Shown here: piece by piece, positions 10,821 to 58,375 of the stretch
Numbering within the stretch: position 1 is the stretch's first letter
How the letters are laid out: each line of letters starts with the position of its first letter
Source of the DNA: Parcubacteria bacterium C7867-001
GTDB lineage: Bacteria; Patescibacteriota; Minisyncoccia; Phycocordibacterales; Phycocordibacteraceae
NCBI GenBank assembly: GCA_001189095.1
Contig: LFCK01000001.1
Coordinates: forward strand, 149,251 to 213,250
DNA length: 64,000 nt
Direction: 5' to 3'
The notes under the pieces: model-generated
Seen by the model: the letters and a program-made list of their open reading frames with translations, nothing else
The model's database searches: none
What the model was told of the DNA's origin: nothing
Translations under genes and position numbers: made by a program

Positions 10821-11354
10821 ATGAGGGGCTTTGCTGATCCTAAAGAGAACATTCTCCATCTCGGTCTGCGCGACGGGAATCGCGTTGCGGATCTTGGCGC
10901 GGGAAGCGGTCACTACGCGCTTGCGGCAGCCGCCATCGTGGGGCACGACGGCAAGGTGTACGCGATAGATCTTCAAGAAGACATTCTCACGCGTCTAAAA
11001 AATGAAGCGGAGCATCGCAAATTACGGAACGTCGACATCATCTGGAGCGACTTCGAAAAAGCAGGAGGCACAAAGCTTCGCGACAACACTATCGATGCAG
11101 TCATCCTTTCAAACACGCTCTTTCAGCTTTCGAAAAAGGAAAGTGCTATCGCCGAAATAAAGCGCATCCTGAAGCCGGGAGGGAAGTTGCTTGTCATCGA
11201 TTGGGCGGGTGCGTATGGCGGGATGGGTCCCGCACCGCACCATGTGGTTCCTGAACGAACTGCGGAAGAATTGTTTATCAATGGTGGTTTCCATAAGGTA
11301 AAATCAGTACGAGGCGGCCCGCACCACTACTCCTTACTTTTCACTTGTCCATGA
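10821..11354 (+). CDS. Class I SAM-dependent methyltransferase
   Basis: Motif I VADLGAGSGHYAL and post-I acidic residue (YAIDLQEDIL). 177 aa. Confidence 0.8.
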   Translation: MRGFADPKENILHLGLRDGNRVADLGAGSGHYALAAAAIVGHDGKVYAIDLQEDILTRLKNEAEHRKLRNVDIIWSDFEKAGGTKLRDNTIDAVILSNTLFQLSKKESAIAEIKRILKPGGKLLVIDWAGAYGGMGPAPHHVVPERTAEELFINGGFHKVKSVRGGPHHYSLLFTCP

Positions 11355-12646
11355 GACCTTTCCAAACCAGCATAATTGCAGTATTCATCATTTTCGCGCT
11401 GCTCGGTCTCTTCGTCTTTGCGACCTATAGCGGCTTTGGCGGCAGCAAGACTTCGGTGGGGAAGATACAAATCTGGGGCACGCTTCCTCAGGACGGCATG
11501 GATCAGGCAATCAGCATTCTCTCGCAAGCGAATAAAGACTATAAGGACATAACCTACAAGCAGTATCCTGCCGCATCCTTTGATGCGGAGCTCGCGAATG
11601 CTATTGCCTCGGGTGCGGGTCCTGATCTCATCATCATTACGCAGGAGCAGTTGCTCTTGGAGGCTTCAAAGCTCACCACTGTTTCCTTCAAGACGCTTCC
11701 GCAGCGTACCTATGTAAATACGTACATTCCCGAAGCGTCGCTCTTCCTTGGTGCTGATGGAACGTACGGCGTTCCGTATGTCGTCGATCCGCTCGTAATG
11801 TATTTCAATGAATCCATGCTTGCGTCTGCCGGTGTCGCGACACCGCCGACTTCGTGGGAAGCTGTGAATGCTCTTGCGCCGAAGCTCACTAAGCAATCTG
11901 CAAACCAAACCATCACGAAGAGTGCGGTCGCTTTCGGAGGTTATGGAAACGTGAACAACGCGCGTGCAATCGTTTCGCTCCTTTTGCTCCAATCGGGCAA
12001 TCAAATTTCCCAGCAAGCTTCGCAAGGTATGCGTTCAACGCTCTCAGATGCGCCGTCGGGCACCTTCGGTGCTTCTCCGGCGGAAGCGTCGCTCAATTTC
12101 TACACGCAGTTCGCAAATCCCTCGAAGACCACCTACTCGTGGAATGCGTCGCTACCGTCTGCGCGCCAAGCATTCCTCTCGGGCGATCTCGCGCTCTATT
12201 TCGGCTTTGCTTCCGAGCGCCCGTTCCTCGAAGAAGCGAACCCGAATCTTCGCTTCGACATGGCGCGGGTGCCGCAGCCGGCAGCCGCGAGCTCAAGAAT
12301 TTCTTACGCGAACCTCTACGCATTCGCGGTACCGAAGGCTTCGAAGAATCCTACCGGCGCCTACAAGACGGCGCTCGCGCTGACCGATACGGATCCGCTT
12401 CTCGCCGCGGCCTACGGCATGGGACTCGCACCCGCAAAACGTGCGCTGCTTTCTCCAGCAACAGATGATCTTTTCGGTCCAGTCTTTTATCCAGAAGCAC
12501 TCACTGCGCAGGGCTGGCTGTCCCCAGCGCCTGCAAGTACGGACCGCATCTTTGCCGGTATGATAGACACTGTAGTCACCGGCAGGGGCGATTCGCAGGA
12601 CGCGCTTCAATCCGCCGAACAATCATTCAATGCTGCATTCCGCTAA
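11345..12646 (+). CDS. Membrane-anchored extracellular solute-binding protein (ABC-transporter SBP-like)
   Basis: N-terminal TM anchor (IIAVFIIFALLGLFVFA). 433 aa with overall SBP-like composition (WEAVNALAPKL..., GYGNVNN...). Family assignment by resemblance only. Confidence 0.6.
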   Translation: MSMRPFQTSIIAVFIIFALLGLFVFATYSGFGGSKTSVGKIQIWGTLPQDGMDQAISILSQANKDYKDITYKQYPAASFDAELANAIASGAGPDLIIITQEQLLLEASKLTTVSFKTLPQRTYVNTYIPEASLFLGADGTYGVPYVVDPLVMYFNESMLASAGVATPPTSWEAVNALAPKLTKQSANQTITKSAVAFGGYGNVNNARAIVSLLLLQSGNQISQQASQGMRSTLSDAPSGTFGASPAEASLNFYTQFANPSKTTYSWNASLPSARQAFLSGDLALYFGFASERPFLEEANPNLRFDMARVPQPAAASSRISYANLYAFAVPKASKNPTGAYKTALALTDTDPLLAAAYGMGLAPAKRALLSPATDDLFGPVFYPEALTAQGWLSPAPASTDRIFAGMIDTVVTGRGDSQDALQSAEQSFNAAFR

Positions 12647-12656
12647 TATTTTCTCC

Positions 12657-13376
12657 ATGAGGAACTTCATTCTTGCGTTCGCTCTTTTGTTGGCGGTGTT
12701 CTTTTCTCTTGGTATTCCTGCGTACGCTGCTGTCGGTACCGATAAAGATCCTGCGTGTCCGACGGGCGACCCGAAGACCTGTCCTTTTCCGGGCTCTCAA
12801 GTCTGTGAGACGGGAACTAATCGATGTATTGATAGTGGAAGCTGCGATTCTTCCAATGGTTCTTGTGATCCAAAATATGCTGCTAAAACTCAGACGGTCG
12901 GCGACGGGGAATCCTGCACAAACAACGGGATGCAAAAGTGTACACCTCCCGCAACCTGCAAGATTCAGCTGGGTCATTCAATCGGTAAATGCGTCGCTCC
13001 TGCTTCAGCTGCAGGTCAGACCTCGACTGACGTAAGTCCCGATGGCCAAGTCTCTCCAGAAACAAGCACAGGCGGTCAAAAGTCTCCTGATGTGACAACA
13101 AAGGGGAGTGGAGGGAAGCTCGAAAACCCACTCAATAACATTGATTCCCTCGAGGGTCTTCTCATGGCAGTTCTTCGCGCTGCCGTGACTCTCGGCTCTA
13201 TTCTCCTTGTCGTGGCAATCGTCTGGGTTGGCGCGCAGTTCGTCTTTGCGCAGGGTCAAGAAGAGAAGATACGTGAGGCGCGTAAGGCGCTCATGTGGAC
13301 CGTCATCGGCGGCCTCGTGCTTCTTGGTGCTGAAGCTATATCGATCGTCATTCAGGCGACCGTATCGACCTTATGA
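12657..13376 (+). CDS. Secreted Cys-rich protein with C-terminal T4SS-pilin-like (TrbC/VirB2-like) two-helix domain
   Basis: Signal peptide MRNFILAFALLLAVFFSLGIPAYA. About 14 Cys in the N-terminal half. C-terminal helix - QGQEEKIREARKAL - helix resembles the downstream paralogues. Confidence 0.65.
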   Translation: MRNFILAFALLLAVFFSLGIPAYAAVGTDKDPACPTGDPKTCPFPGSQVCETGTNRCIDSGSCDSSNGSCDPKYAAKTQTVGDGESCTNNGMQKCTPPATCKIQLGHSIGKCVAPASAAGQTSTDVSPDGQVSPETSTGGQKSPDVTTKGSGGKLENPLNNIDSLEGLLMAVLRAAVTLGSILLVVAIVWVGAQFVFAQGQEEKIREARKALMWTVIGGLVLLGAEAISIVIQATVSTL

Positions 13377-13636
13377 GTTTCGCTGAGCTTGTGGGGAATG
13401 TCATTGTTCCAATTGTGGACGGAGCTATCATTCCGCTTCTCTACGCGCTCTCCTTCATTTTCTTTCTCTACGGGGTAGTGAAATATTTCTTCCTTGCTGG
13501 CGAGGAGGCAAAGAACGAAGGGAAGACCTATGCCATTTTCGGCCTCGTTGGCCTCGTGGTGCTTTTTTCTGTCTGGGGCTTTGTTCGCCTCATTCTCCAC
13601 TCTTTTCTCGATTACGCGCTGCCGTTCGGGCTCTAA
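13373..13636 (+). CDS. T4SS-pilin-like small membrane protein (paralogue 1)
   Basis: Two hydrophobic helices flanking AGEEAKNEGKTYAIFGLVGL. Start codon overlaps the previous stop. 87 aa. Confidence 0.75.
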   Translation: MSFAELVGNVIVPIVDGAIIPLLYALSFIFFLYGVVKYFFLAGEEAKNEGKTYAIFGLVGLVVLFSVWGFVRLILHSFLDYALPFGL

Positions 13637-13687
13637 GCGCTGGGCATAACGTCTTGTTCCTTCATATTCCGCTGCTACCATAGACCT

Positions 13688-14071
13688 ATGGCCACCTCAT
13701 CACTTCCTGCAGCCCTCGTCCTCACGCTCGGTCAGCCGACCGTCTGGGGTCTTATCGGACAAATCATCGCGATCATCGATCAGGTGCTCGTGCCGCTCCT
13801 TTTCGCGGTCGCGTTCATTGTCTTCATTTACGGTGTTTACCAGTACTTCATTGCGGGTGGTGCCGATGAGGAGAAGCGAAAGAAAGGCCGTGAGCTCGTC
13901 ATGTATGGCCTTATTGGCTTCTTTATCATGATTACTGTCTGGGGTCTCGTGAACGTGCTTGTGGCGTCGCTCGGCTTCGGCTCGCAGAGCCGTCCTGCAC
14001 TCCCATGCTTCACGGGCTACTGCTCAGGAGGTGGTAGCGGCATAAACGTCAATATCAACATACCGCTCTAG
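13688..14071 (+). CDS. T4SS-pilin-like small membrane protein (paralogue 2)
   Basis: Core LVPLLFAVAFIVFIYGVYQYFIAGGADEEKRKKGRELVMYGLIGFFIMITVWGLVNVL. Gly-rich C-terminal tail. Confidence 0.75.
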   Translation: MATSSLPAALVLTLGQPTVWGLIGQIIAIIDQVLVPLLFAVAFIVFIYGVYQYFIAGGADEEKRKKGRELVMYGLIGFFIMITVWGLVNVLVASLGFGSQSRPALPCFTGYCSGGGSGINVNINIPL

Positions 14072-14132
14072 AAGGGATTGACGCTGGGTTCCGGCAGACT
14101 ATCCTGTATCTATAGATTCTTAACATTCGCTC

Positions 14133-14489
14133 ATGAAAAAAATTGCTTATTTGGGTTCGATGCTCGCGCTCCCGATGCTCGCGTTTGCGGCAATCGGTAG
14201 CATTCAAGATCTCGGAAACTTCTTTATAAATCTCATCAACACGGTGCTCGTGCCGCTCGTGTTCGCGCTCGCCTTCATCGTGTTCATCTGGGGCGTGTTC
14301 ATGTACTTCATTCAGGGCGGCGCCGATGAAGAGAAGCGCGAAAAGGGCCGTGTGCTCATGCTCTACGGTATCGTCGGCTTCTTCCTCATGGTCTCGGTTT
14401 GGGGTCTTGTGAACATCCTCATCGGTACGTTCAACCTCAACAACACGACCGGTCCTTCTTCCGGCTTCCCGCAAGCTCCGACCAAATAA
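14133..14489 (+). CDS. T4SS-pilin-like small membrane protein (paralogue 3)
   Basis: Signal peptide, then LVPLVFALAFIVFIWGVFMYFIQGGADEEKREKGRVLMLYGIVGFFLMVSVWGLVNIL. Nearly identical core to paralogue 2. Confidence 0.8.
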   Translation: MKKIAYLGSMLALPMLAFAAIGSIQDLGNFFINLINTVLVPLVFALAFIVFIWGVFMYFIQGGADEEKREKGRVLMLYGIVGFFLMVSVWGLVNILIGTFNLNNTTGPSSGFPQAPTK

Positions 14490-14585
14490 CACTCTCCTAA
14501 GAAAAACGCGCCGCGCATGCGGCGCGTTTTTCTTATACCCATTCTCTTGCGCACTCGAGCGCTACGCGGTTTATACTAAAGCTAT

Positions 14586-14849
14586 ATGGAAAGCGATCCG
14601 TTCACAGAATTTTTGACGAAAGTCGCCGCGGCTATCATTGACCCCTTGATTACGCTCATCGCACTCGCAGCATTCGTGGTGTTTGTGTGGGGTGTTGTCG
14701 ATTATGTGCGTGGGGCAGGAGACGCGGAGAAGCGAAAAGCGGGGCAGCAGCACATGATCTGGGGCATCATTGGTCTCGCAGTCCTTTTCGGCGCGCGCGC
14801 TATAGTGCAAATTCTCATTGCGACGTTAAACCAGACCCTCGGAGGATAA
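14586..14849 (+). CDS. T4SS-pilin-like small membrane protein (paralogue 4)
   Basis: Core FVVFVWGVVDYVRGAGDAEKRKAGQQHMIWGIIGLAVLFGARAIV. Own promoter-like TTGCGC - 18 nt - TATACT (14548-14577) and an upstream hairpin terminator (14503-14532). Confidence 0.7.
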   Translation: MESDPFTEFLTKVAAAIIDPLITLIALAAFVVFVWGVVDYVRGAGDAEKRKAGQQHMIWGIIGLAVLFGARAIVQILIATLNQTLGG

Positions 14850-14896
14850 AAAGAAAGCCGCGCTCATTGAGCGCGGCTTGTAGTTTTTCGAGGTAG

Positions 14897-15457
14897 CTAT
14901 TCCTCTTCTTCCTCGTCGTCCGATTCGGATTCCTCCTCCTCGTCCGTCGATTCGTCTTCGGTAGCTGCGCCCGTGTTGCATTGTTCTGCGAGGTTGTACC
15001 CCACCGTAACCGGACGATCCCCGTCGAGGCCGACGAACATCATCTCGGTCACAACCGAGCCGGATTCCGCGAGACGGATGTCCCGGAAGCCGCCCGTACG
15101 CAAATCCTTGTAGAGGAGCTGGTACGACGCGTGCTGGTTCTCGGGTGATTGATACGGAAGGTCGAAGCAGAATCTGAGCTTCGTCCCGCCATCTTCTTGG
15201 CCGATCGAGGTCGTGCCGTTCTTGTTGAACGTGCAGTACCGATGTTCCCGAGAGAACGAAGGGCACACGACCTGCGCAATTGAGGTTGCTTGTTCGTCGG
15301 TAGAAGCCGTTTTTTTCGGCGACGTGTCGGAAAGAGCGAACCAAAATAGGGCTCCTGCGACAAGTACAACGCTCGCGATGAGAAGCGGGACGAACATCGG
15401 GATTTTCCCTTTGCCGCCCTTTTCCTCACCGCCTTTCTTCTTGTGGTCGTCACTCAT
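14897..15457 (-). CDS. Membrane-anchored protein with poly-acidic C-terminal tail
   Basis: AAAGGAG SD. One TM helix, then a Cys-containing ectodomain and the tail TEDESTDEEEESESDDEEEEE. Start overlaps the stop of the upstream SPFH gene by 1 nt (TAATG). Confidence 0.6.
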   Translation of the reverse strand: MSDDHKKKGGEEKGGKGKIPMFVPLLIASVVLVAGALFWFALSDTSPKKTASTDEQATSIAQVVCPSFSREHRYCTFNKNGTTSIGQEDGGTKLRFCFDLPYQSPENQHASYQLLYKDLRTGGFRDIRLAESGSVVTEMMFVGLDGDRPVTVGYNLAEQCNTGAATEDESTDEEEESESDDEEEEE

Positions 15458-16466
15458 TACGAGTCTCCTTTCGATTTGTCGCGGCCGCTAAGTCCGGCAG
15501 CGATCGCTGTTCCGATTATGGATGCTGCGTCTTTAAGGCCAGCAATGTTGACGGTCTGCGTGGTTGAGGGACGATCTGGTGTCACGATCGAATGGGCTTG
15601 GCCCATTGCGGTGACAGGATCGACGCCTTTTGCAACGAAGCCGTCCATGCTCTTTTCGAAGGTTGCTTGGAGTTTTACTCGGGCCTCCTCACGCTTTTCC
15701 GCTTCCGCGATTTCGGATGCGGCAGCTGTGACGTTTTCCGGTAGATCGAAGTTAGGAATCGCGACACTGGTGATCTCGATTCCCCAAGGATGGGCTTCGC
15801 CCTTTTCACTACCGTACTGTATATCCGGCGGGTCCTTGGTTACTTTTAGGATCTCACAGTCGTAGCCGTTCGAGCGTTTCTGCAGATGTTCAGTGATGAT
15901 TTTCTTGAGCGCTTCTGCCGGTTTGGAACCGACAAAATCCTCAAGATTGTCACATTCGCGACCAAACGCTCGCGCGACTTGGCTAACGTCCGATTTTATC
16001 CCTTGCTCGGGGTCGGCGAGGTTGCCGAAGTGGAACAGCCCACCGACGCGAGGTCGCCAAAAGATGTTGACCTCGGTCTTGATAATGGTGTCGTCGCCGA
16101 CTTCAATCTGGACTACTTGATCGCCCGCCATTTTGATCGGGCGTTCTTTCATCGAGATGTGCTCGACGCCTTGGATGTTGAACCACTTCAGAATCCAGTG
16201 CTGGCCTTCGACCAATTCCTGACCTTTCTGCCGAGTTCCGAACGAAAGAAGAATCCCGCGTTCAGTAGTCGGAATATAGACCAAGTTGCTGTTCCATACG
16301 GCTACCCACACAAAAGGGGCAGCGGCAAGTCCAGCGAGGATGCTTATCGGATAGAGGTGTAACACCTTACCCGCTACAGTTATTGCTGCTGCCGACAAAA
16401 GGGCAACGGCAGTAGAGAAGAGTGCTCCGGTCACTAAGGTGCCGTTGCGCTCCATGCTATGGGCCA
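15457..16466 (-). CDS. SPFH / band-7 (stomatin-prohibitin-flotillin-HflK/C) domain membrane protein
   Basis: N-terminal TM helices followed by TTERGILLSFGTRQKGQELVEGQHWILKWFNIQGVEHISMKERPI... (the ERGxVxxFG SPFH start). AGGAGG SD upstream of MAHSME. Confidence 0.75.
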
Positions 16467-16553
16467 TAGGACCCTCCTGTTGGTTAATTCGTACCTCGGT
16501 TCTCAAGGTACTTCTGGTACTAAATTAAACAGAAATTACGCTAAAGTCAAGTG

Positions 16554-23988: not shown

Positions 23989-24095
23989 AAGAAAAGCCGC
24001 CCACAGGGCGGTTTTTCTTTAAGTGACAAAAGGAAGGCGTCGTGTCAGTATCGGACCTAGCCGTTCATTACTTACGGCAGAAAGAGGAGGCAGAA

Positions 24096-24410
24096 ATGTC
24101 CTACAACGTTGCTCTCCGTTATACGGAGAAGGCTGGCGGGTACGCTGGTGTGATTTTCTGGAGCAGCTATCCCTCGAAGGAGGCGCTCCATGAATTCATC
24201 GGCTCTCAAGAAAAACTCGAAATTGTCGAAGAAGGCATCACCGAAGAGCTCGCTACTGCGCTCACGCGGCAAACGCCCTCTCGCAGCTACGCGAATGCGG
24301 CGCTCGCAGCCGCGACCGACCCTGAGACCGGCGAAGTCAATCCCGACCTGCTCGAACATGAAATGAGCAAGGCGGTGTTCGGCATTCGTCTTGCTGCACA
24401 GTCGGCGTAA
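24096..24410 (+). CDS. Hypothetical protein (104 aa)
   Basis: AGGAGG SD 6 nt upstream of the ATG at 24096. The longer frame from 24042 lacks an SD. Confidence 0.45.
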   Translation: MSYNVALRYTEKAGGYAGVIFWSSYPSKEALHEFIGSQEKLEIVEEGITEELATALTRQTPSRSYANAALAAATDPETGEVNPDLLEHEMSKAVFGIRLAAQSA

Positions 24411-24436
24411 TAATCCGCTTGGTAATGGAGGACGAA

Positions 24437-24610
24437 ATGTCTGAGAAACGGAAACTCGTTAAAGGAGATCCGGAGCGCTTCAAGAAGTTCTGGCCTTCGG
24501 GCCGGCCGCAGATGCCAGTGGGGTACAACGCTCCTCTCGATACTCGGCCGACGATTCAGATCATCCGCGAACGCGATGAAGCCGATGCGGCCGCTGGCCG
24601 TACGTGGTAA
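24437..24610 (+). CDS. Hypothetical small protein (57 aa)
   Basis: GGAGG SD upstream. Terminator hairpin aagccgctccc ttt gggagcggctt at 24613-24640. Confidence 0.4.
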   Translation: MSEKRKLVKGDPERFKKFWPSGRPQMPVGYNAPLDTRPTIQIIRERDEADAAAGRTW

Positions 24611-24654
24611 ATGCTAAGCCGCTCCCTTTGGGAGCGGCTTTGGATTTTGTAATG

Positions 24655-24806
24655 ATGCGGGCCCACGAGGACCGCGAGTACGCGTATCGGTCCTTACAGG
24701 ACCTGTACACGTTGCGGATATTTCAGTTCGCCTCACTCCTGAAATATGCTCGCAACATTTTCGATTCCTCGACGCAGACGCCCCGCGTCTGCGTGGGCCC
24801 GCATGC
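24655..24806. repeat. Hairpin-rich ~150-nt element closed by inverted copies of the tRNA-Trp 3' end
   Basis: gcgggcccacgagg at 24659-24672 and tcgattcctcg[22-nt palindromic insert]tgggcccgc at 24764-24806. Both match the T-arm/acceptor 3' segment of the adjacent tRNA-Trp. At least three internal hairpins lie between them. Confidence 0.5.
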
Positions 24807-24835
24807 AAAAACCGCCTTGCGGCGGCTTTGCAGTG

Positions 24836-24906
24836 CGGGCCCACGAGGAATCGAACCTCGGCCGACGGTTTTGGAGACCGACGTTCTACCATTAAACTAT
24901 AGGCCC
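24836..24906 (-). tRNA. tRNA-Trp (anticodon CCA)
   Basis: Acceptor gggccta/tgggccc. Anticodon loop ctccaaa. T-loop ggttcgattcc. Hairpin plus T5 terminator downstream on the minus strand (24808-24832). Confidence 0.85.
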
Positions 24907-24982
24907 AATATCACGCAGGGTAACAGATATGAGGCTGGGGGAAAAGCGCCTTCGAGAGGCCTCCTCGACGTATACTAGGGGT

Positions 24983-25945
24983 ATGAACTTCGTCAAAACG
25001 GCGATTCCAGTGCTTTTTGTTGCGGTCGCCCTTATCCTCCCGCAGGTATCTTTTGCGGCTGCGACCTTCTTCGATCCTATTATCCCGCCGGAATGCCATT
25101 GCGAGCAGTCGGCGCCTGATTTCGGTTGCGTGATGCAGATAATCCAGAATGTGATGAATTTTGGTGTTTCTATTTCGGTTATCGCCGTAACGCTGGCGCT
25201 CGCGTACGGAGGCATTTTGTGGATTTTGAGCCCAGTGAATCCTCAGAACCGAGAAATCGCGAAAACAGCTCTCCTCAATTCAGTTATCGGTATTGTCATT
25301 GTGCTCGGAGCGTGGCTTATCGTGGACTTCGTCATGAAGACCTTTTATGGTGGCCAATTCGGGCCGTGGAATGAAATCATTATGTCTGAGGAGGGGACTC
25401 AGTGTCTTCAAGTGAAGAAGCCTGCAGCGCCGGCAGGAACTACAACGGATGGAAAGCCAACCGACGGGGGACTCGGTACGACTGAGAACCCGAAGCCTCA
25501 GACAGGTCCTTCAGGTTCCGATAAGAAGTGGGAAGATTTCTTCTCATTCGACTCTTCGGCCATTAAAGCAGGAGCAGGAGCAATTTCTGGATCGCTCGAT
25601 ACAATGTTGGGCTGCATGGTACCAAAACTTCCTGCTGGAGTGGGCCGTATCTCTGCACTCACCGACAGTTACGTGCAAACGGATTCAACGAAAATTGCAC
25701 ACTGTGCGAAAGTTGGTAAAGAAGGAGATTCAAGCTGTAAGCATACATGGGCTTCCTGCCATTACGGCGGTAAGACGTGTGGCGAATCATATGCAGTCGA
25801 TTTCGGAGATGAAGAAAATTCAAGTAAGTTGATTGCCGCTGCAAAAGCGTGCGGAGCTTCTCGAGCAGTCGTAGAAAATGGAAATCACGTTCACGTTGCT
25901 ATGCCTAACCAATGCGGAGGACAGAAGAGTAATTCTTGTCAGTAG
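24983..25945 (+). CDS. T4SS-pilin-like domain protein with Gly/Thr linker and Cys-rich C-terminal domain (possible M15/VanY-like peptidase)
   Basis: Signal peptide MNFVKTAIPVLFVAVALILPQVSFA. Pilin-like two-helix core VIAVTLALAYGGILWILSPVNPQNREIAKTALLNSVIGIVIVLGAWLIV. C-terminal SCHYGGKTCGESYAVDFGD ... NGNHVHVA resembles the H..D / H.H zinc ligands of LAS/M15 peptidases (weak). Confidence 0.55.
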   Translation: MNFVKTAIPVLFVAVALILPQVSFAAATFFDPIIPPECHCEQSAPDFGCVMQIIQNVMNFGVSISVIAVTLALAYGGILWILSPVNPQNREIAKTALLNSVIGIVIVLGAWLIVDFVMKTFYGGQFGPWNEIIMSEEGTQCLQVKKPAAPAGTTTDGKPTDGGLGTTENPKPQTGPSGSDKKWEDFFSFDSSAIKAGAGAISGSLDTMLGCMVPKLPAGVGRISALTDSYVQTDSTKIAHCAKVGKEGDSSCKHTWASCHYGGKTCGESYAVDFGDEENSSKLIAAAKACGASRAVVENGNHVHVAMPNQCGGQKSNSCQ

Positions 25946-45303: not shown

Positions 45304-45876
45304 ATGTCTCTAGAACAATACTCCATTTTTCTAACTCTCGGCCTCTTTGGAATGTTTGGCTTAGTAGTCATAAGTGCTGTTCTATATTTTTTGATTCCTA
45401 AGGTGCGTAATCACATACGTTCGCACAGCTACGCAAACTTCCTTGCGGCGATCGGTCTCATATCAGTAGCATCAATCATAGGAGCTCTTACCTATCAGCT
45501 CGTGTACCTGACTCCGGTCTGCGAACTCTGCTGGTGGCAACGTATTTTCCTTTTTCCAATAGGCGTCATTGCCGCAGTGGCATTATGGTACAAGACCAGA
45601 GAAGCGCACGTTACAATCGCAATCCTCTCAGCTATAGGACTTTTCTATGCCTGCTACCATTACTACTATCATTTCCAAGGGCTGGTTCTCGGAAATACGC
45701 TCTCGCTCCCATGCTCTTTCGTGGGTCTTCTCCCTGCGTGCACTAACTCGCCGATACTCACTTTCGGCTTTGTAACGATTCCATTCATGGGCATCCTTGT
45801 ATTTTCCAGCATGCTGATATTAGCTGCCTTTGCCCATATGAAAGCTAAACGTGACGCTAAGCCAAACACGGTATAA
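45304..45876 (+). CDS. Disulfide bond formation protein DsbB/BdbC family
   Basis: Four TM helices. First Cys pair in PVCELCWWQRIF (compare BdbC PCVLCWYQR) and second pair PCSFVGLLPAC. Confidence 0.7.
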   Translation: MSLEQYSIFLTLGLFGMFGLVVISAVLYFLIPKVRNHIRSHSYANFLAAIGLISVASIIGALTYQLVYLTPVCELCWWQRIFLFPIGVIAAVALWYKTREAHVTIAILSAIGLFYACYHYYYHFQGLVLGNTLSLPCSFVGLLPACTNSPILTFGFVTIPFMGILVFSSMLILAAFAHMKAKRDAKPNTV

Positions 45877-45885
45877 TCTTTACAT

Positions 45886-46545
45886 ATGAAAATGAACTCG
45901 ACTGCATGGTGGGTTATTGGTGTGCTCGTGGTGGCAGGAGGCCTCATATTCTTATCCAATATGCTACGCACGGCGTCTACTCCTTCAACAGAAGAGGCTT
46001 CAGAGGTGCTTACGCTTGTAGCGGATGACCACAAGAAAGGGGCAGAAGACGGAAAAGTTGTCCTTGTTGAATATCTCGATTTTGAATGTGAGGCTTGTGG
46101 CGCGTACTATCCTGTTGTTAAACAGATGGAAGAGGAATTTGGGAACCGCGTGACATTCGTCGCAAGGTATTTTCCTCTTCAGGGACACAGGAACGGCATG
46201 ACTGCAGCACTTGCAGCTGAGGCAGCGGGTCGCCAGGGAAAGTTCTGGGAGATGCACGATCTTATGTATACTCGTCAGAAGGACTGGGGTGAAAAGCAGG
46301 TTTCGACTCCAGAAGTATTCGAGGAATATGCACAAGAATTGGGGCTTAACATGGAGCAGTTCAAAACAGATGTTGCGTCAGCTTCTGTAAAGGAGCGGGT
46401 AGAACGAAATCTTAACCAAGCAATTGAACTCAAACTTCAAGGAACACCCTCGTTTTTCCTTCAGGGAAAGAAAATTGCGAATCCGCAATCGCCAGAAGCA
46501 TTTAAGGCACTTATCCGGGCAGAGCTCGAGCGCGCTGGCTCATAA
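45886..46545 (+). CDS. DsbA/BdbD-like thiol:disulfide oxidoreductase (thioredoxin fold, CEAC active site), membrane-anchored
   Basis: N-terminal TM helix. VEYLDFECEACGAYYP active site. Thioredoxin-fold spacing. Confidence 0.75.
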   Translation: MKMNSTAWWVIGVLVVAGGLIFLSNMLRTASTPSTEEASEVLTLVADDHKKGAEDGKVVLVEYLDFECEACGAYYPVVKQMEEEFGNRVTFVARYFPLQGHRNGMTAALAAEAAGRQGKFWEMHDLMYTRQKDWGEKQVSTPEVFEEYAQELGLNMEQFKTDVASASVKERVERNLNQAIELKLQGTPSFFLQGKKIANPQSPEAFKALIRAELERAGS

Positions 46546-46566: not shown

Positions 46567-47307
46567 ATGGACAAAGAAACACACATCGCCGCATCTACCG
46601 AATCTAAGCTCTCAACGCCAGTCGCCATACTTCTCGGCGCGCTCATTATCGCCGGAGCGGTACTCGTAACGAAGTACATGCCCGCGCCAAACAGCGCAAA
46701 CGTGGCGGCGCCTGGACAGCCTCAGGCTCAATCTGCAAATCTTGAAGCAGTGCGTCCGATAGGCGCGGAAGATCATATTCGTGGGAATCCCGATGCTCCT
46801 GTAAAGGTAGTCATGTATTCAGATACTGAGTGTCCATTCTGCAAGCGTTTCCATAACACCATGCAGGAACTTATGAGCACCTATGGTGCAGAAGGTAAAG
46901 TCGCATGGGTATACCGTCATTTCCCGCTTGACCAACTTCACAAAAAAGCACGCAAGGAAGCAGTCGCTAGCGAGTGCGCCGCAGAGCAAGGAGGTAACGA
47001 TGCTTTCTGGGCATACATGGATCGCATGATGGAGATAACCCCTTCTAACGATGGTCTTGACTCGGCGGAGCTTCCGAAGATAGCGGCGTTCATTGGACTT
47101 GATGTGACGAAGTTCAATGCATGTCTTTCCTCAGACAAATACGCAAAGCGCGTGCAGGACGATGCGGACAATGCGCTTAAAACAGGGGGTCAAGGAACTC
47201 CGTGGAGTATCGTTATTGGACCAAACGGGAAGAAGTACGAGCTATCAGGGGCGCAACCAATCGACGCAGTACGTCAGCTGGTTGATATTGCGCTAGCAGA
47301 TAAATAA
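46567..47307 (+). CDS. DsbA-like thiol:disulfide oxidoreductase (CPFC active site), membrane-anchored
   Basis: VVMYSDTECPFCKRFH active site. TM anchor near the N-terminus. Confidence 0.75.
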   Translation: MDKETHIAASTESKLSTPVAILLGALIIAGAVLVTKYMPAPNSANVAAPGQPQAQSANLEAVRPIGAEDHIRGNPDAPVKVVMYSDTECPFCKRFHNTMQELMSTYGAEGKVAWVYRHFPLDQLHKKARKEAVASECAAEQGGNDAFWAYMDRMMEITPSNDGLDSAELPKIAAFIGLDVTKFNACLSSDKYAKRVQDDADNALKTGGQGTPWSIVIGPNGKKYELSGAQPIDAVRQLVDIALADK

Positions 47308-48909: not shown

Positions 48910-50004
48910 TTGCCTTCAATCTTTTTCTCCCGTTCTAAAGCTAATGCTAAGAAGCGCGGTACATACAAAGTTTATAGTTCGGTAGCAGCGGTTTTCGCTC
49001 TATCCTTTTTTATTCATATTGTGTCGCCGCAGTCTGTAGACGGCATTTTTCCTTTTCCACATACAGCACACGCTCAATCTGACGGCGAGGGTGGCATGAT
49101 TCATGACCCAACTATTGACCTGCTCGAAGCTGCCGTAAATTTCGACCCCAATCCAAACAAGGGTGACCATGAAATGGAACTCGCTGGAGGTATAGCACTC
49201 TTGCCTCACGGAGATATTCCGGAGGGCGAAGTCGGGGCATTAGACTCGAAAGCTTCTTCACCAAACAAAACAGGTATTGCAATCTATACCGTTAAGAAAG
49301 GTGACTCGCTCTCAGAGATTGCAGAGGAGTACGGTGTGTCTACAAAAACTATTCTGTGGGCGAACGATATACGAGATGCAAGCACTATTGGTATTGGAGA
49401 CGAGCTCATTATTCTTCCAGTCACAGGTGTTCAGCATAAAGTAGTGAGAGGGGAAACACTTCAATCTATCGCCAAGAAGTACGGTTCGGATGTAACTGAT
49501 ATTGCGCTCTACAACGGCATTAGCGAAAGCAAGGGTCTTATCGCAGGTTCCGAGATCATTGTCCCGGGCGGCGCATTCCCATCAGCTTCTCCAAAGAGTG
49601 TGGCAAGCACCGGTTCATCTAAGAAAAGTACTGCTTCAGCAAAGTCTTCAAGTACCTCTTCCTCATCAGGCAAGTTTGGGAACCCTCTCCCTGGTGGAGC
49701 TATCACGCAGGCAAATCATGGGTACAACGCCGTAGATATAGATGGTGAAACAGGAGACCCTATTTACGCTTCGGCAGGTGGTACGGTCCTTGTTGCTAAA
49801 GGAAGTGGCTGGAATGGTGGATACGGGAATTACGTAGTTATTGAACATGGAGGGGGAGCACAGACGCTCTATGCACACATGTCGAATGTTGCTGCGTCTG
49901 GCTCAGTATCTAAGGGTGATGTTATTGGGTACGTAGGAAATACAGGCAAGTCCACTGGGTCTCATCTTCACTTCGAGGTGCGAGGAGCAAGTAATCCTTT
50001 ATAA
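48910..50004 (+). CDS. LysM-domain M23 metalloendopeptidase
   Basis: Two LysM repeats (YTVKKGDSLSEIAEEYGVS...; HKVVRGETLQSIAKKYGSD...). M23 core GYNAVDIDGETGDPIYASAGGTV...HMSNVAASG...GNTGKSTGSHLHFEV. Confidence 0.8.
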   Translation: MPSIFFSRSKANAKKRGTYKVYSSVAAVFALSFFIHIVSPQSVDGIFPFPHTAHAQSDGEGGMIHDPTIDLLEAAVNFDPNPNKGDHEMELAGGIALLPHGDIPEGEVGALDSKASSPNKTGIAIYTVKKGDSLSEIAEEYGVSTKTILWANDIRDASTIGIGDELIILPVTGVQHKVVRGETLQSIAKKYGSDVTDIALYNGISESKGLIAGSEIIVPGGAFPSASPKSVASTGSSKKSTASAKSSSTSSSSGKFGNPLPGGAITQANHGYNAVDIDGETGDPIYASAGGTVLVAKGSGWNGGYGNYVVIEHGGGAQTLYAHMSNVAASGSVSKGDVIGYVGNTGKSTGSHLHFEVRGASNPL

Positions 50005-50030: not shown

Positions 50031-51359
50031 TTATGCGACCGTTATTTTTTTATCTTTCAGAAATAGTTTGGTCTTGAGACATGAGAGCATCTCTCGCTTC
50101 TCGAATATCGTTCCTTCTTTCAGCAGGTACTTTGCGTAGTTCCTGATATCCACGTCTGGTGTTTGAACATCCTTCTTGTGTCCCAGCACACCCACTCTAA
50201 ATTTGTTGAATCGTGCTAGTTCTTGCTCTATCCGCGAGTGCATTCCTAGCTCATCCAGACTCAGTGTGTCCATAAGCTCCACCAGCCCGTCTATAAGTAG
50301 AGTCTCGTTGATATAGGGATTCTGGCATTCATCCCTACCTATCTTGCTACAGAAGTAGTACACATGCCGATTCACCCCTCCATCTTTAAGCTTCTTAAAC
50401 TTCTCGTCAGCAGTAATTCCTGAGGTGCAGTACCCGCATCGAATCAGCTTCGTGAAGGCGAACTCTTTACTCTCGGTTTTCGGTACGTACTTCTGGTCTA
50501 AGGCAACCTGCACCTTGTCGAACAGTTCTTTATCAATGACTGGGCTATGTCGTCCCGTGTACCAGTTACCACTCCCGACAGGGTACTCAAACTCCCCATA
50601 GTAGTACGGGTTCCGTAATATGAGGTAGATGTTTGCGAGCACGAGCGGTTTTCCGCGGTGCGTTTTGAATCCAGTATCCTCGAGCCATCGGTGTAGCTTT
50701 CTTCCGCTCCATTGTTCGTGCGCGACTTTCTCATACATCTGCCGAATCACATGTCCTCGCTTCGGATCTATTCTCGACTGGCATTTCTTATCAACATTCT
50801 TCTCATTCAAATAACCCGTGGGTGCGACTCCTGGTCGAAGTCCCATCTCACACCTCGTGCGAAGTCCACGTTTTACGTTCACCGCCTTGTTGTCATTCTC
50901 GAGCTTTGCCTGACTTCCTAGAATCATCAATAGAAACTTCTCATTCGGATTATTGGTGAATCGCTGTCCGTAGGTGCGTATTTCTACCAACTTCCCCTGA
51001 TCCATCAAATCCACCACCGACCCTAAGTCCCCAGCATTACGCGCCAGACGGTCGGGTGCCCACGTCAGGATGCCGTTGTACTTACCCTCACGAAGCTCGG
51101 CGAGCATTTCGTTGTATATCGGTCTTTGTCCAACCTCCTTAGAGGAGTGCGATTCTCGCTTGGTCTCTATTATGGTCAGTCCATCCCGCTCAGCTAAATT
51201 CAACATCTCCTTAACTTGCGATTCTATTGATAATGCCTGCTTATCCTCGGCTTCCGTCGATTTCCTCGCGTAGAGGCAGTATTTGATGGCTACTGCCTCT
51301 ATAAGAGGGACAGGTCTCGAAACCCCTTGTTTACGCTCACTTATTGCTATTTGTGTCAT
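50031..51359 (-). CDS. Large serine recombinase (resolvase-domain plus recombinase/zinc-ribbon domains)
   Basis: Catalytic AIKYCLYARKSTEAEDKQALSIESQ (Y-A-R-x-S-T serine motif), a later recombinase domain and a Cys cluster (CGYCTS...C). Start placed at MTQIAIS. The ORF track extends to 51518 but would overlap the divergent gene. Confidence 0.8.
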   Translation of the reverse strand: MTQIAISERKQGVSRPVPLIEAVAIKYCLYARKSTEAEDKQALSIESQVKEMLNLAERDGLTIIETKRESHSSKEVGQRPIYNEMLAELREGKYNGILTWAPDRLARNAGDLGSVVDLMDQGKLVEIRTYGQRFTNNPNEKFLLMILGSQAKLENDNKAVNVKRGLRTRCEMGLRPGVAPTGYLNEKNVDKKCQSRIDPKRGHVIRQMYEKVAHEQWSGRKLHRWLEDTGFKTHRGKPLVLANIYLILRNPYYYGEFEYPVGSGNWYTGRHSPVIDKELFDKVQVALDQKYVPKTESKEFAFTKLIRCGYCTSGITADEKFKKLKDGGVNRHVYYFCSKIGRDECQNPYINETLLIDGLVELMDTLSLDELGMHSRIEQELARFNKFRVGVLGHKKDVQTPDVDIRNYAKYLLKEGTIFEKREMLSCLKTKLFLKDKKITVA

Positions 51360-51516
51360 ACAACCACATTGATGACGCCGAACCCCATACGAGTCTAGAG
51401 CGGCTAAGACGCGTTGGAGTTGGCAGAGTCTGCCAGAGATTACTCTTTGTGTAGGCTGTAAATCAGGAGTAAAATGAAGCAAATGAGGCAAGCAAAAGTA
51501 AACGTATTTATTACAC

Positions 51517-52125
51517 ATGCAAGACGATCCATTTCTAGGAACTAAGGACGGGCTTAGTGTCCTAGGTGGAGAAGTATCTAATTTTTACCAATTAGGATTT
51601 GGTCAACTTGATATCAGCGAAGAGGAAATTAGTAAAGCTGGGCGATTGATACATGTTTTGTCGATTATAAAGCTTGAAGGATTACGTCCAGAAAAGTATC
51701 CCGCGAAGGGTGTAACGAATGATCATCACAGGCATTTACAAGGTGCATTATTCGCTTTTGGAACTGAAGGAGTTAATCACGAATGGAGAGAACACTCCGC
51801 ATCATCTATACGAGAAATGATTTCAGGCTTTGCTTCGTCTGAACTGGAATTTAATGAGAACGTAAGTAAGTATGGGACTAATCAGAATACTAATTCAGAT
51901 GAACTTAAAAAGATAGAATCGGCTTGTAAAAAAATAAAGAAGTACTACCAATTTTTTACTGGCGTAACACATCATCAACAGGCAGCCATTACTAATGGAT
52001 TCCGTCAATTAGAAGATTTAAGTGCAGAAAATGAAAGATGCTTGAGCGTCGATAGTTTTAAATTAGTGTTCAAACATTTCTTTATTGATTTGAAGAAAAT
52101 CATTACAGTATTTCCAGACCTATGA
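51517..52125 (+). CDS. Hypothetical protein (202 aa), translationally coupled to the next gene
   Basis: ATGA overlap with the 52122 start. No recognisable motif. AT-rich codon usage typical of the island. Confidence 0.5.
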   Translation: MQDDPFLGTKDGLSVLGGEVSNFYQLGFGQLDISEEEISKAGRLIHVLSIIKLEGLRPEKYPAKGVTNDHHRHLQGALFAFGTEGVNHEWREHSASSIREMISGFASSELEFNENVSKYGTNQNTNSDELKKIESACKKIKKYYQFFTGVTHHQQAAITNGFRQLEDLSAENERCLSVDSFKLVFKHFFIDLKKIITVFPDL

Positions 52126-55064
52126 AACAGCTTCAATTACATCGCAAAATAGATGAGTTTTTGAAAGCAGGAATTGCAACCGCGTCTGTTGATGTTGCGC
52201 AAGGGTTTATTCATGGTAACGAAGACTCAAAGCGGTATTTCTTTGCACAGGCAAATGAGTCTTGGCTAAGATGGTTCTTCGATAATGGTCTCTTTGAGGA
52301 ACTTAAGAAAAAAGCCGAAGATCCGACTAAGTACGGATACCGTCTTTCAGAACTTGAGTATCTAACAAGAATGGCGGATAAAGAGCCTCAGACTGTAGTG
52401 GATATTATTCTTTCCATCTCTATCACCAAGGACACCTTCAATCCTGAGGTAATAGATAGATTTTTCTGGATTACAGGACTACTGCCAATCACTCAAATAA
52501 AACAGATTCTACCAAAGATTCTCTCTGAAAATTGGTTGTTGCTGATGTCACCATTTAGTAAGTCTGGATACGAGTATCAGAAGATGGTCGAGAAGCTAAG
52601 TGAAGCTAAGGATTATGACGCTCTCCTTATTCTCACTCAAATCATTCTCACCGTTCGTGCAAAAGAAGAGTTCGCTGACTCGGAACGCTTTTTCATATCG
52701 GATAAATTGTTCTACCTTGGCGATATCAACGCTACGGGTATATTTGATGTAATCACAAATACTGAGAATCCAAAGAAAGAGGAGTTTTTGAAGGTTACCC
52801 TAGACACCCTCGCGATAGTTGTTGATTTGGGTAAAGAAAGAGAAGAGACTGTCTTTGATAAAACGGAACCGTTTTATTTACTCGATGTCGATATATTTGC
52901 TCTTGAACTTGATACGGGTAAGCGGTCTCATCTAAGAGAAGACATTCAAAATCTTGTTGCAACAGCTAAAGTTCTTGTTCGCTCTACAATCGGCTCTCTC
53001 TGTGAGAACGAGTTAGAAACAAGGCGAATATACGATACATATATTGCGACCCTGCCAGATAGTCTTACTTGCTGGAGATTGAAGCTCTACTCGATTACTC
53101 GTTGCCCCGAGGTCTTTAAAGTTGAAATCAAAGAGGCGTTATTCCGCGCATTCAATGTGGGAGAAAGATATTTTGAAATCGATGGAGGTGCCGAGTACCA
53201 TAGAGGTCTCATTGCTGGTTTTGGTGCACTTGATGATGCGACAAAAAGAGAGTATGTCAGCAAAGTCATTGAATATTACGGCGCTACTTTAGACGATAAG
53301 GATCGAGAGGGGTGGAGAAAGAGAGATGGTCTAGAGATATTAGGCTATATCAAAACTTATCTAACTCCAGAAGAATTCACAATCTCTGAACCAATCTTGG
53401 GAGTTATACCTACGGGTGAGGTTGTTGTACCACATCCGTCAGTCGGAAAAGTCACTAGTGGAATGGTACTCCACAAATCACCGTTTAACCCAGCAGATAT
53501 TACAATCGACGAACTCATTAATCACCTTAAAACTGACTCAACACCGAAAGCACTTAATGAGCAGTACAAGAATGACGATTTCCTCAGCCCGCGCGGAGCT
53601 GAGGGACTTAGTGATGCAATAAAAGAAGATTTTAAAATACGAAGAGTTGAGTATTTGAGCAATCTCAATAAGTTCTTTGACCGTGATGCAATTGACCCCG
53701 TGTATGTTTATGGACTTCTTCGTCAGGTAGAAGACATGCTTCGAGCAAAAGAAGCATTTAGTACTACTGAATATCTTCAGTTAATAAGCTTCTTTACTCT
53801 CATCGAACAATCTGGAACAGAGGTCGAATTTGAGCCAGCAGAGGAAAGACCTTACTGGGCTGACTGGATAACTGTGCACAAATCTATGGCAGATGTGTTA
53901 CTTGAGATTCTTGCACTAATGAAAGATTCCCAGACATTCAAAGATAATAGAGCACAAATATTCTCCTTGGTTAAATATCTTCTTTCCATCAAGAGTAGCC
54001 CTGATGCAGAGGACGATAAACGAGAATCAAATGAGCCAGCTCATGTAGCCATCAATTCCGTGCGTGGCCAGGCGTATAGAGCGTTCGTACAATTCACCTA
54101 TAACGAAGGAAATAAAACATTGTCGGAGGACGTAAAGACTCTCTACGAGCATGTGTTGGCTACTGATAGCTCAAACGCAGTCAGGTTTACGATAGGTCAA
54201 TTTTTGGCATCATTCTATTTCCGCGACATCCCGTTTATTACAAGTCTATTTCCAAAGCTATTCCCGAAAGCAGAAGCCGGTAAAGAAAAGGCTTACTTCG
54301 CGACATGGGAAGGGTATCTCGCGAGCTCGCTATACAAAGAGCTTTTTGAAGCACTTAGGGAATATTACGAATATGCAATAAACATCGATCCAGAGACGTA
54401 CCCTGATCGGAAATACCTCAAAGGATTAGATGAAACTCTTGCTGTCCATATCGCACTTGCGTACGCGCACTTCGATTTCAACATAGGTGATCCTTTGTTT
54501 GATCTATTCTGGAATACTGCTAATGAGACCCGTCATTACGAGTTCGTGTCATTTGTTGGGCGAACTTGTATCACTCGAAGTCAGGCTGGCGATGCTTGGT
54601 TTGCTGAAAATAATGTAAGCAAAGAAAAGCTCATTGAGTTCTGGAATTGGATTATTGCTACAGATATTCCGATTGAATCAAAAGCGTTTTCGGGCTTTGG
54701 GTTCTGGATAAATCCTGACAAGGAAATCATTGATGAGAAGATACTCATCCAAAACCTTTCAACTACTCTTGAAAAATCCGAGGGTGAGGTTGATTGGGAT
54801 TACGGTCTAACCCGTAGAATAAAAGTATTTGCTGAAATTGATCCAGAAAATACGCTCGAAATAATTCGACACTTCTTGTTGCAGGGTAACGAACTGAATT
54901 CGCATAGACGAGCACCTTTATTCAGTATTGATACTGAAATCAAAGAAGCTCTCGAGATTATCTATACGAACGAGCGACTAAAACAGGGTGTCGAAGACCT
55001 CATCAATCTTCTCATTGAAAGGGGTAGTAGTGTCTTCTGGGGGCTCAAAGACATCCTCAAATAG
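52122..55064 (+). CDS. Large hypothetical protein (980 aa, predicted alpha-helical, no recognisable catalytic motif)
   Basis: Single uninterrupted ORF. No Walker, HEPN, PD-(D/E)xK or zinc-finger motifs visible by eye. Weak hairpin (agggc ttcgcaa gccct) after the stop. Confidence 0.6.
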   Translation: MKQLQLHRKIDEFLKAGIATASVDVAQGFIHGNEDSKRYFFAQANESWLRWFFDNGLFEELKKKAEDPTKYGYRLSELEYLTRMADKEPQTVVDIILSISITKDTFNPEVIDRFFWITGLLPITQIKQILPKILSENWLLLMSPFSKSGYEYQKMVEKLSEAKDYDALLILTQIILTVRAKEEFADSERFFISDKLFYLGDINATGIFDVITNTENPKKEEFLKVTLDTLAIVVDLGKEREETVFDKTEPFYLLDVDIFALELDTGKRSHLREDIQNLVATAKVLVRSTIGSLCENELETRRIYDTYIATLPDSLTCWRLKLYSITRCPEVFKVEIKEALFRAFNVGERYFEIDGGAEYHRGLIAGFGALDDATKREYVSKVIEYYGATLDDKDREGWRKRDGLEILGYIKTYLTPEEFTISEPILGVIPTGEVVVPHPSVGKVTSGMVLHKSPFNPADITIDELINHLKTDSTPKALNEQYKNDDFLSPRGAEGLSDAIKEDFKIRRVEYLSNLNKFFDRDAIDPVYVYGLLRQVEDMLRAKEAFSTTEYLQLISFFTLIEQSGTEVEFEPAEERPYWADWITVHKSMADVLLEILALMKDSQTFKDNRAQIFSLVKYLLSIKSSPDAEDDKRESNEPAHVAINSVRGQAYRAFVQFTYNEGNKTLSEDVKTLYEHVLATDSSNAVRFTIGQFLASFYFRDIPFITSLFPKLFPKAEAGKEKAYFATWEGYLASSLYKELFEALREYYEYAINIDPETYPDRKYLKGLDETLAVHIALAYAHFDFNIGDPLFDLFWNTANETRHYEFVSFVGRTCITRSQAGDAWFAENNVSKEKLIEFWNWIIATDIPIESKAFSGFGFWINPDKEIIDEKILIQNLSTTLEKSEGEVDWDYGLTRRIKVFAEIDPENTLEIIRHFLLQGNELNSHRRAPLFSIDTEIKEALEIIYTNERLKQGVEDLINLLIERGSSVFWGLKDILK

Positions 55065-55378
55065 AGCTGTTGGTAAGAGGGCTTCGCAAGGCCCTATATC
55101 TAAGCTAAGGTTCTAAAAGGTAGCGCAATTTGCTATCATAGTCCTTGTACAACAAAGACCTAACCTCTAGAAAACGCTTAGTTTCCTAGAGCATGGTCGG
55201 AATAACAAAACCGCTACAGTATAGAAGGCTCCTCGTCAGAGTCACTGTAGCGGTCGTGTACTCGAAAGGGTATATGGGTTAGGCCGAAAGGTCTGATCGC
55301 AATGGCGGGGAGCCTTCTGTCCCACGACTCTAGGCTCCCTGCTACTTATTAGCAGAAGCTAAAACCGCTACAGTGCAT

Positions 55379-58354: not shown

Positions 58355-58375
58355 CTCTCTTTCAGAAGAACGCAT

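Follow-up and report, generated by a model that had tools for sequence, protein, structure and literature searches.

A conserved array of five predicted T4SS-pilin-type genes behind a putative orphan solute-binding protein in a Paceibacteria genome

Introduction

Patescibacteria account for a large share of the uncultivated bacteria and appear attached to other cells. Arrays of pilin genes as such have already been published for this phylum: a search of 3,035 Patescibacteria genomes with the Pfam models PF18895 (T4SS_pilin) and PF04956 (TrbC/VirB2) returned 441 VirB2 arrays from 383 assemblies, the arrays having 2-11 genes that are 25% identical on average (Quinonero-Coronel et al. 2025, PMC12102498), and in the same survey pilin genes lay near virB4 in 1135 of 1948 assemblies. 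In Southlakia epibionticum, so far the single species tested, a predicted pilin series inside a type IV secretion system (T4SS) cluster was essential in transposon sequencing (Tn-seq; Wang et al. 2023, PMC10633639). Here we analysed one such array in a stretch of 64,000 nucleotides (the window, meaning this whole stretch) from Parcubacteria bacterium C7867-001 (contig LFCK01000001.1, positions 149,251 to 213,250 of the forward strand). An earlier note on the window had described a tandem set of five small pilin-like genes at 12657-14849 with a sixth member at 24983-25945, had assigned them to the T4SS pilins that are expanded in the Candidate Phyla Radiation (CPR)/Patescibacteria, and had called the function of such proteins essentially untested; with a comparable series essential in Southlakia, this last statement is no longer fully true.

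The classification proved to be correct. As an overall reading of the locus we propose, with a probability of roughly 0.55, that the five genes form a conserved chromosomal operon of VirB2/TrbC-type pilins behind an orphan solute-binding protein (SBP), the subunits being assembled by a VirB4 T4SS that is encoded elsewhere. Below we present the evidence on which this proposal is built, and the readings that compete with it.

Results

Six proteins of one two-helix family

All six open reading frames (ORFs) are present on the plus strand, and the genes also stand in the public annotation of the same sequence, which is carried by a 173-kb JGI contig and a 390-kb NCBI contig. The array opens with pilin A at 12657-13376 (239 aa; an alternative start at 12630, the one called on public contigs, gives 248 aa), followed by pilin B at 13373-13636 (87 aa), pilin C at 13688-14071 (127 aa, with a C-terminal tail containing Gly and Cys), pilin D at 14133-14489 (118 aa, with a signal peptide of 19 residues and an inferred cleavage at AFA↓A) and pilin E at 14586-14849 (87 aa), the last gene of the array. 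Pilin F (24983-25945, 320 aa) is separate from the array and lies about 10 kb from it. The stop of A and the start of B share the sequence ATGA, and the two genes may therefore be translationally coupled.

The translation of each of the six ORFs contains two hydrophobic segments of about 19 or more residues (the two transmembrane segments of B among them), with a short, highly charged loop (K, R, E, D) between them, and hydropathy peaks of 1.9-2.8 were obtained in two 19-residue windows of every protein. AlphaFold models of D (helices at residues 24-61 and 66-100, model pLDDT 81.7) and of F (helices at 47-82 and 87-121) gave a long helix-loop-helix hairpin with a pLDDT (predicted local distance difference test) of about 85-94. 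For the loop, the earlier note had given the motif [FY]xxGG(A)DEEKRxKGR, and for the second helix WGxV. Only C and D match the loop motif exactly; in the other four proteins it is degenerate. WGxV occurs in B, C and D and in none of the other three.

PF18895 was the top Pfam match of all six proteins (35.1, 25.9, 38.6, 37.1, 38.1 and 36.5 bits for A to F), and with a gathering cut-off of 26.6 bits five of the six scored above it, with B just below. Though below the cut-off, B falls in the clade of second-position proteins described in the next section, and its identity to positions 3 and 4 is 36%. In NCBIfam, the best match of all six was NF045849, the Mbov_0395 family pilin-like conjugal transfer protein of Mycoplasma integrative and conjugative elements (ICEs); none of them reached its cut-off of 40 bits (14-31 bits; E 1e-7 to 5e-7 for C, D and E). 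The proteins also recognize one another: a hidden Markov model (HMM) of the F family matched E, C, A and D at E 3e-9 to 1e-7, and the HMM of the A family matched E and F, while no seventh member was found in the window by the HMMs of the paralogue families. A connection to TrbC/VirB2 is visible among the relatives of F, of which 19 of 43 match that Pfam model at E ≤0.01 (best E 8e-7); the relationship of these proteins to TrbC/VirB2 appears to be a remote one only.

Pilin D has the same sequence as ABA06_00885 of Parcubacteria bacterium C7867-001. In all, 557 relatives of it were found, many of them 60-70% identical and 115-120 aa long; relatives at 60-70% identity from metagenome-assembled genomes of Patescibacteria number in the hundreds, and several are named 'pilin' by NCBI. 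The expansion of the family that the earlier note had mentioned is thus borne out by hundreds of relatives, as well as by the catalogue of arrays in PMC12102498. Orthologues of each of the genes are kept in related species-level genomes, and this conservation argues that the genes are real and not chance ORFs. On sequence grounds, then, the set reads as a real family of PF18895 T4SS_pilin two-helix membrane proteins, in agreement with the assignment, the five-gene set and the sixth member of the earlier note.

Ancient, position-specific paralogues in a fixed order

Related loci were collected by scanning a genome collection with the D family, which yielded 80 species-level loci with 10-kb flanks, 72 of which span the whole array. 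BLAST against the window proteins gave one order wherever a locus was of sufficient length, namely GyrA, the methyltransferase, the SBP, pilins A to E, RbfA and ClpB; the part from GyrA to E is kept in all 72 array-spanning loci. Synteny in these genomes extends over 20 kb, from GyrA through to ClpB, and phage or integrase genes are absent from the vicinity. Most arrays have five pilin genes (45/72), fewer have six (25/72), and seven were counted in 2/72.

The phylogeny that the earlier note had asked for was built as a neighbour-joining tree from the hairpin domains of 22 five-gene loci and the window, 23 in all. Positions 1, 2, 4 and 5 each formed a separate clade of 23 without foreign members. 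Position 3 was paraphyletic with position 4; C is the nearest paralogue of D, and the C/D type alone varies in copy number. Identity across species was 48-67% within a position, as compared with 18-47% between positions, and the most conserved member was D, at 66.7%. From the clustering by position and the higher identity within than between positions, the paralogues are ancient, position-specific orthologues in a fixed order, and this contradicts a rapidly varying repertoire of interchangeable variants.

As a side observation on this collection, many of the related records (L006-L085) are titled 'uncultured Candidatus Saccharibacteria', 'Bacillota' or 'Hydrogenedentes' despite their Paceibacteria-type synteny; these titles look like mislabels or mis-binned contigs.

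A putative orphan solute-binding protein directly upstream

Two genes on the plus strand precede the array. The first encodes a class I S-adenosylmethionine (SAM)-dependent methyltransferase (10821-11354, 177 aa; Pfam Methyltransf_11/25/31 and related families), the stop of which overlaps the start of the second gene, up433 (11345-12646, 433 aa). The methyltransferase is also directly 5' of the latter gene in related loci, and all boundaries from the methyltransferase through up433 and A to B overlap or nearly touch.

By itself the up433 protein had no Pfam match. A profile of 31 orthologues matched sugar ABC SBPs of the PDB at E 6e-12, and of the individual orthologues 22/31 matched SBP_bac_1 and 20/31 SBP_bac_8. 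Because of the orthologue profile and the SBP_bac_1 matches, up433 is best described as a predicted orphan family-1 SBP of the sugar/maltose-binding type, tethered to the membrane by its N-terminus. No permease or ATPase gene lies beside it. The SBP gene is directly 5' of A in all 72 loci that have both the SBP and E genes.

Two pilins with additional domains

In pilin A a signal peptide and a Cys-rich module precede the hairpin, which is C-terminal, just as the earlier note had it; the number of cysteines, given there as about 14, is 10. Its layout consists of a signal peptide at residues 1-24 (inferred cleavage AYA↓A), the 10 Cys at 34-112, a linker of Ser, Thr, Pro and Gly at about 116-154, and the PF18895 hairpin at 155-239 (nt 13119-13373). 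The Cys-rich head had no match in Pfam or NCBIfam, and an exact copy of A was not among the homologues returned for it. In orthologues at position 1 the C-terminal hairpin is well conserved, the region between signal peptide and hairpin measures 0-254 aa, and at least 4 Cys precede the hairpin in 22/82 proteins, usually 8 or 10. Because both the length of this region and the occurrence of the cysteines differ so much, the Cys-rich module is taken as a hypervariable, lineage-variable insert or head at the mature N-terminus.

Pilin F, for which the earlier note had announced a different C-terminal fusion, does have such a domain. A signal peptide (about residues 1-25) and a CxC motif are followed by the PF18895 hairpin (about 47-121), a linker of Pro, Gly and Thr (135-180) and, at residues 181-311, a domain rich in Cys and His. 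The same layout is seen in about 220 relatives, which are about 300 aa long. The C-terminal domain has the predicted Hedgehog/DD-peptidase (LAS) zinc fold, as in the Hedgehog N-domain and DD-carboxypeptidase. In LAS enzymes the order His...Asp...His-x-His makes up the metal site. Residues H254, H260, D273, H302 and H304 and several Cys are invariant in 43 F homologues, and by analogy with the LAS motif order H260, D273, H302 and H304 would be the metal ligands. The SxHxxGxAxD motif of F contains a 6-residue insertion with a Cys.

Predicted fold and motif together suggest that the C-terminal domain of F is a cell-wall-peptidase-like domain of the LAS type. Profile searches were negative: the domain had no match in Pfam or NCBIfam, none of the 43 F-family members matched a curated peptidase HMM (VanY PF02557 and other M15 models) at E ≤0.01, and when the F family was aligned by hhalign with a VanY-bearing relative (P0207) only the pilin halves aligned. 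At the syntenic site preceding miaA, more distant relatives have an orthologous pilin domain, 45% identical, with a Pfam VanY domain behind it. Different ectodomains, namely F-type LAS, VanY and TSP3-containing ones, are found swapped on the same pilin scaffold. In a full scan of 1.84 billion cluster representatives the F-type domain occurred in 279, always at the C-terminus, and among 135 checked representatives 119 also had the pilin hairpin, the remainder being mostly fragments. By this sequence survey the F-type domain seems to occur almost only fused to pilins.

Several further genes bear on A and F. A DsbB gene (45304-45876) followed by two DsbA/thioredoxin-like genes (45886-46545 and 46567-47307) lies in the window, and this DsbB/DsbA system could form disulfides in the Cys-rich ectodomains of A and F. 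Other cell-wall enzymes in the vicinity are a LysM and Peptidase_M23 protein (48910-50004) and a VanY-family protein whose gene starts just past the right edge of the window (L003, 22671-22943). In two relatives (L086, 8405-10004; L087, 8424-10004) the F-type gene is preceded by an extra PF18895 fusion of 330-342 aa and a gene of 183-191 aa. The corresponding part of the window, about 24000-24980, lacks both extra genes and has two small ORFs and a tRNA-Trp gene (24835-24906, minus strand) instead.

Proposed assembly by a remote secretion system, or a possible complex of its own

In our proposal, the hairpins would be oriented with both N- and C-termini outside the cell and the loop in the cytoplasm, as the positive-inside rule predicts, and with this topology the A head and the F peptidase domain would be extracytoplasmic. 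The subunits would be pulled from the membrane and built into a heteromeric surface filament or channel sheath by a remote T4SS of the monoderm VirB4 type; the genome (GCA_001189095.1, C7867-001, Paceibacteria, 812,017 bp) is VirB4-positive in Table S1 of PMC12102498. We infer a pilus function for the array, with D as the candidate major subunit (possibly together with C), on the grounds of its highest conservation, its own signal peptide and the conserved strong RNA hairpin that follows its gene. A might be a minor subunit that bears an adhesin or determines specificity, and F a subunit with a cell-wall peptidase, serving either to open the cell's own wall in the manner of VirB1 or to attack the wall of a host. 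The full version of this picture, a heteromeric fibre of the five pilins and the SBP in which some subunits bear ectodomains (a disulfide-rich adhesin head on A, a LAS peptidase on F), is speculative and in our estimate improbable. If true, it would amount to a 'pilus-borne enzyme' that recognizes and breaches the host wall and captures the nutrients released, powered by the remote VirB4 or independently.

A number of results weigh against assembly by a T4SS. The earlier note had suggested searching with the Pfam T4SS_pilin and TrbC/VirB2 models and looking for a cognate T4SS or type IV pilus. With PF04956, A, D, E and F scored 14.6-17.7 bits (E 0.004-0.04), below the gathering cut-off of 27.9, and B and C had no match. 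Gene calls and Pfam matches covering about 3.7-64 kb of the window revealed neither VirB4 or VirB6 nor a coupling protein or type IV pilus gene; no VirB4, other T4SS gene or type IV pilus gene was recognizable within 10 kb of the array in 80/80 related loci, in which the large unassigned ORFs near the arrays had no ATPase domain. The link to a T4SS hence comes from the family name and from other lineages. A D-family profile run against all PDB sequences hit no solved pilin, only FliL and designed channels at E >0.05, and structure searches were non-specific, the fold resembling generic membrane hairpins. B and E have no signal peptide, and the division into major and minor subunits is pure conjecture. 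No observed pilus of PF18895 proteins is described in the reviews consulted, and one of 2025 presents the pilus as an 'intriguing possibility' and not as an observation (PMC12857230).

Several of these points would fit a complex in the cytoplasmic membrane that works with a putatively co-transcribed SBP and independently of any T4SS, either as an uptake or envelope module or as a set of two-helix anchors that display ectodomains without polymerising. The SBP gene stands directly 5' of the array in 72 loci, with overlapping or nearly touching boundaries from the methyltransferase to B; it has no permease or ATPase beside it, just as the 10-kb surroundings of the array are free of T4SS genes in 80 genomes; and a generic membrane hairpin that carries LAS, VanY or TSP3-containing domains is what a mere display scaffold could look like. 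However, since the whole 20-kb GyrA-ClpB block is syntenic, adjacency to the SBP is weak evidence of coupling. HMM links to conjugative pilins, through PF18895, TrbC and the Mycoplasma ICE model, also speak against such a complex, as does the situation in other Patescibacteria classes, where pilin genes lie by virB4 in 1135 assemblies (PMC12102498) and are essential in Southlakia (PMC10633639). We therefore consider a T4SS-independent complex unlikely, though a possibility to be taken seriously, and favour assembly of the VirB2/TrbC-type subunits by a VirB4 system encoded elsewhere.

Transcription signals within the array

The earlier note had reported internal terminators and promoters in the array. 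This holds for the D/E junction, where an intrinsic terminator follows D (14498-14535, plus strand) with a stem of 17 bp between a run of A and a run of T (-29.4 kcal/mol, z -8.97). It does not hold for the gaps between B and C and between C and D, which are unstructured and lack a terminator. A second intrinsic terminator, with an 11-bp GC-rich stem and a T-rich tail, lies after E (14855-14889, plus strand; -21.4 kcal/mol, z -4.28) and closes the array. Both signals recur in the 72 related loci, where the median best-window energy was -24.1 kcal/mol after the penultimate gene and -23.0 after the last, as against -10 to -13 kcal/mol at other junctions, a comparison of hairpin energies only.

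Between the D terminator and E lies a promoter-like site (14547-14577, plus strand). Both boxes of the promoter claimed in the earlier note are present, TTGCGC at 14547-14552 and TATACT at 14572-14577; the spacer is 19 nt instead of 18, and the site failed a consensus sigma-70 scan, which found sites in the window no more often than by chance. TATACT ends 8 nt before the ATG of E, the geometry of a leaderless mRNA, and this arrangement is common in the window: a TAnnnT box, often TATAAT or TATACT, with its end 5-11 nt from the start codon was present upstream of 18/38 gene starts as compared with 5.9% of random positions, and a Shine-Dalgarno-like motif at 5/38. Boxes of this leaderless type precede A, C, D, E and F, and examples in the window are those at genes starting at 43109, 45886, 20243, 24983 and 14586. 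Among E orthologues 43/65 keep a TAnnnT box at the same distance, again against 5.9% of random positions. These data suggest that leaderless mRNAs are widespread in this organism, where they may even be the rule. With a terminator after D and a box before E that both appear conserved, separate transcription of E is plausible, and to this extent the differential expression proposed in the earlier note is retained.

That proposal had gone further, to an analogy with pilin antigenic repertoires. Spelled out, this would be a set of variants that can stand in for one another and whose differential expression provides antigenic or host-range variation, as in the virB2 paralogues of Bartonella or Anaplasma. 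The separate promoter-like site and terminator of E are compatible with it, as are the varying copy number of the C/D type (5-7 genes per array) and the hypervariable head of A, and the idea has been raised for Patescibacteria arrays generally (PMC12102498). However, a repertoire of exchangeable genes is hard to reconcile with monophyletic positions 1, 2, 4 and 5, with orthologues that are more similar to each other than are paralogues (48-67% against 18-47%), and with an order fixed in 72 loci and a gene number that is largely so. Moreover, the positions are unlike in gene length, signal peptide and fused domains, which points to distinct conserved roles, and no repeats, invertible segments or silent cassettes were noticed on reading the region. 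The analogy with an antigenic repertoire thus fails, and we regard this explanation as very unlikely.

Genomic neighbourhood

Apart from the genes described above and below, the calls over about 3.7-64 kb of the window are of housekeeping genes (gyrA, rbfA, infB, clpB, parB, relA/spoT, topA, dprA, serS and dnaX). Convergent to the array, on the minus strand at 14897-16506, are genes for a membrane protein of 186 aa that ends in a poly-acidic tail and for an SPFH/Band 7 protein (Pfam E 2.6e-9); the same convergent position in relatives is occupied by variable membrane proteins of about 400-470 aa without a Pfam match. Further away, an island at 50031-59434 has a GC content of 40-47% as compared with about 53%. 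It carries a serine recombinase gene (50031-51518, minus strand) and also encodes unknown proteins of 202, 980 and 307 aa, a fusion of ParB_N with an N6/N4 methyltransferase (56643-57971) and other proteins of unknown type. The block is also present on an independent 15.9-kb Logan contig, and the island is probably an integrated mobile element.

A mobile element at 50-59 kb, together with small proteins of two transmembrane segments, one of them fused to a peptidase-like domain, could bring to mind a holin/endolysin-like lysis module or a mere collection of unrelated small hydrophobic ORFs, but cross-family HMM matches that indicate mutual homology, a conserved gyrA, rbfA, infB and clpB context free of phage and integrase genes, and an array GC content equal to that of the window outside the low-GC island make either extremely improbable, and we rejected both on conservation and genomic context.

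Discussion

The data indicate that Paceibacteria have a pilin set of several subunits which is ancient and fixed, and not a repertoire that varies. Its predicted outward-facing parts, the head of A and the LAS-type domain of F for which there is no Pfam model, lead to testable hypotheses on subunit roles, host recognition and wall breaching. Compared with the published accounts (PMC12102498, PMC10633639, PMC12857230), the following points were not found in these and are modestly new: in Paceibacteria, the strict positional orthology and the pairing with an SBP; the separation from virB4, which is consistent; and the members with ectodomains, among them the LAS-type domain borne by a pilin.

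The closest described systems are the arrays of other Patescibacteria, for example SEML1_0006-0019 of Southlakia epibionticum ML1. These consist of small two-helix proteins of the same Pfam family, encoded by tandem divergent paralogues, with about 25% average identity in the literature and 18-47% between positions here; phylum, a VirB4-positive genome and the lack of a typical conjugation context are shared as well. Unlike the Southlakia cluster, the array described here has no virB4 nearby, neither in the window nor in the 10-kb flanks of 80 related loci, and it occupies a fixed housekeeping site behind an orphan SBP. The virB2 arrays of Bartonella, Anaplasma and Rickettsia are similar in having tandem divergent VirB2-type genes in a host-dependent bacterium (PMC12102498). 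They differ in that the paralogues of our array are ancient and position-specific, with different architectures, and do not form a variable surface-antigen family.

With the TrbC/VirB2/TraA pilins of Gram-negative bacteria the six proteins share the two-helix hairpin, the basic loop, the predicted orientation with both termini outside and a weak HMM similarity. In contrast to those pilins they have no long leader peptide (19 residues in D, none in B and E), they belong to a monoderm organism, and no VirB3-B11 genes are adjacent.

Hydrolases of monoderm T4SSs, such as TraG of pIP501, PrgK and CwlT, are membrane-tethered and face outward. F would resemble them in both respects. It is unlike T4SS-associated hydrolases, VirB1 included, in having a LAS-type domain, with an activity that is predicted only, instead of a lytic transglycosylase or CHAP/NlpC-P60 domain, and a pilin hairpin in place of a plain transmembrane anchor. 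In its predicted fold, its invariant H, D and HxH residues and its syntenic orthologues with VanY, F is akin to the LAS peptidases (VanY/M15, the Hedgehog N-domain and DD-carboxypeptidase).

Finally, the 80-residue model of Mbov_0395 (NF045849) aligned over its full length to all six hairpins, below its cut-off and from a different organism and gene context. The end-to-end match, at E 1e-7 to 5e-7 for C, D and E, hints that monoderm (MPF-FATA-type) systems also have VirB2-like proteins, and thereby bears on the origin of the Patescibacteria pilins.

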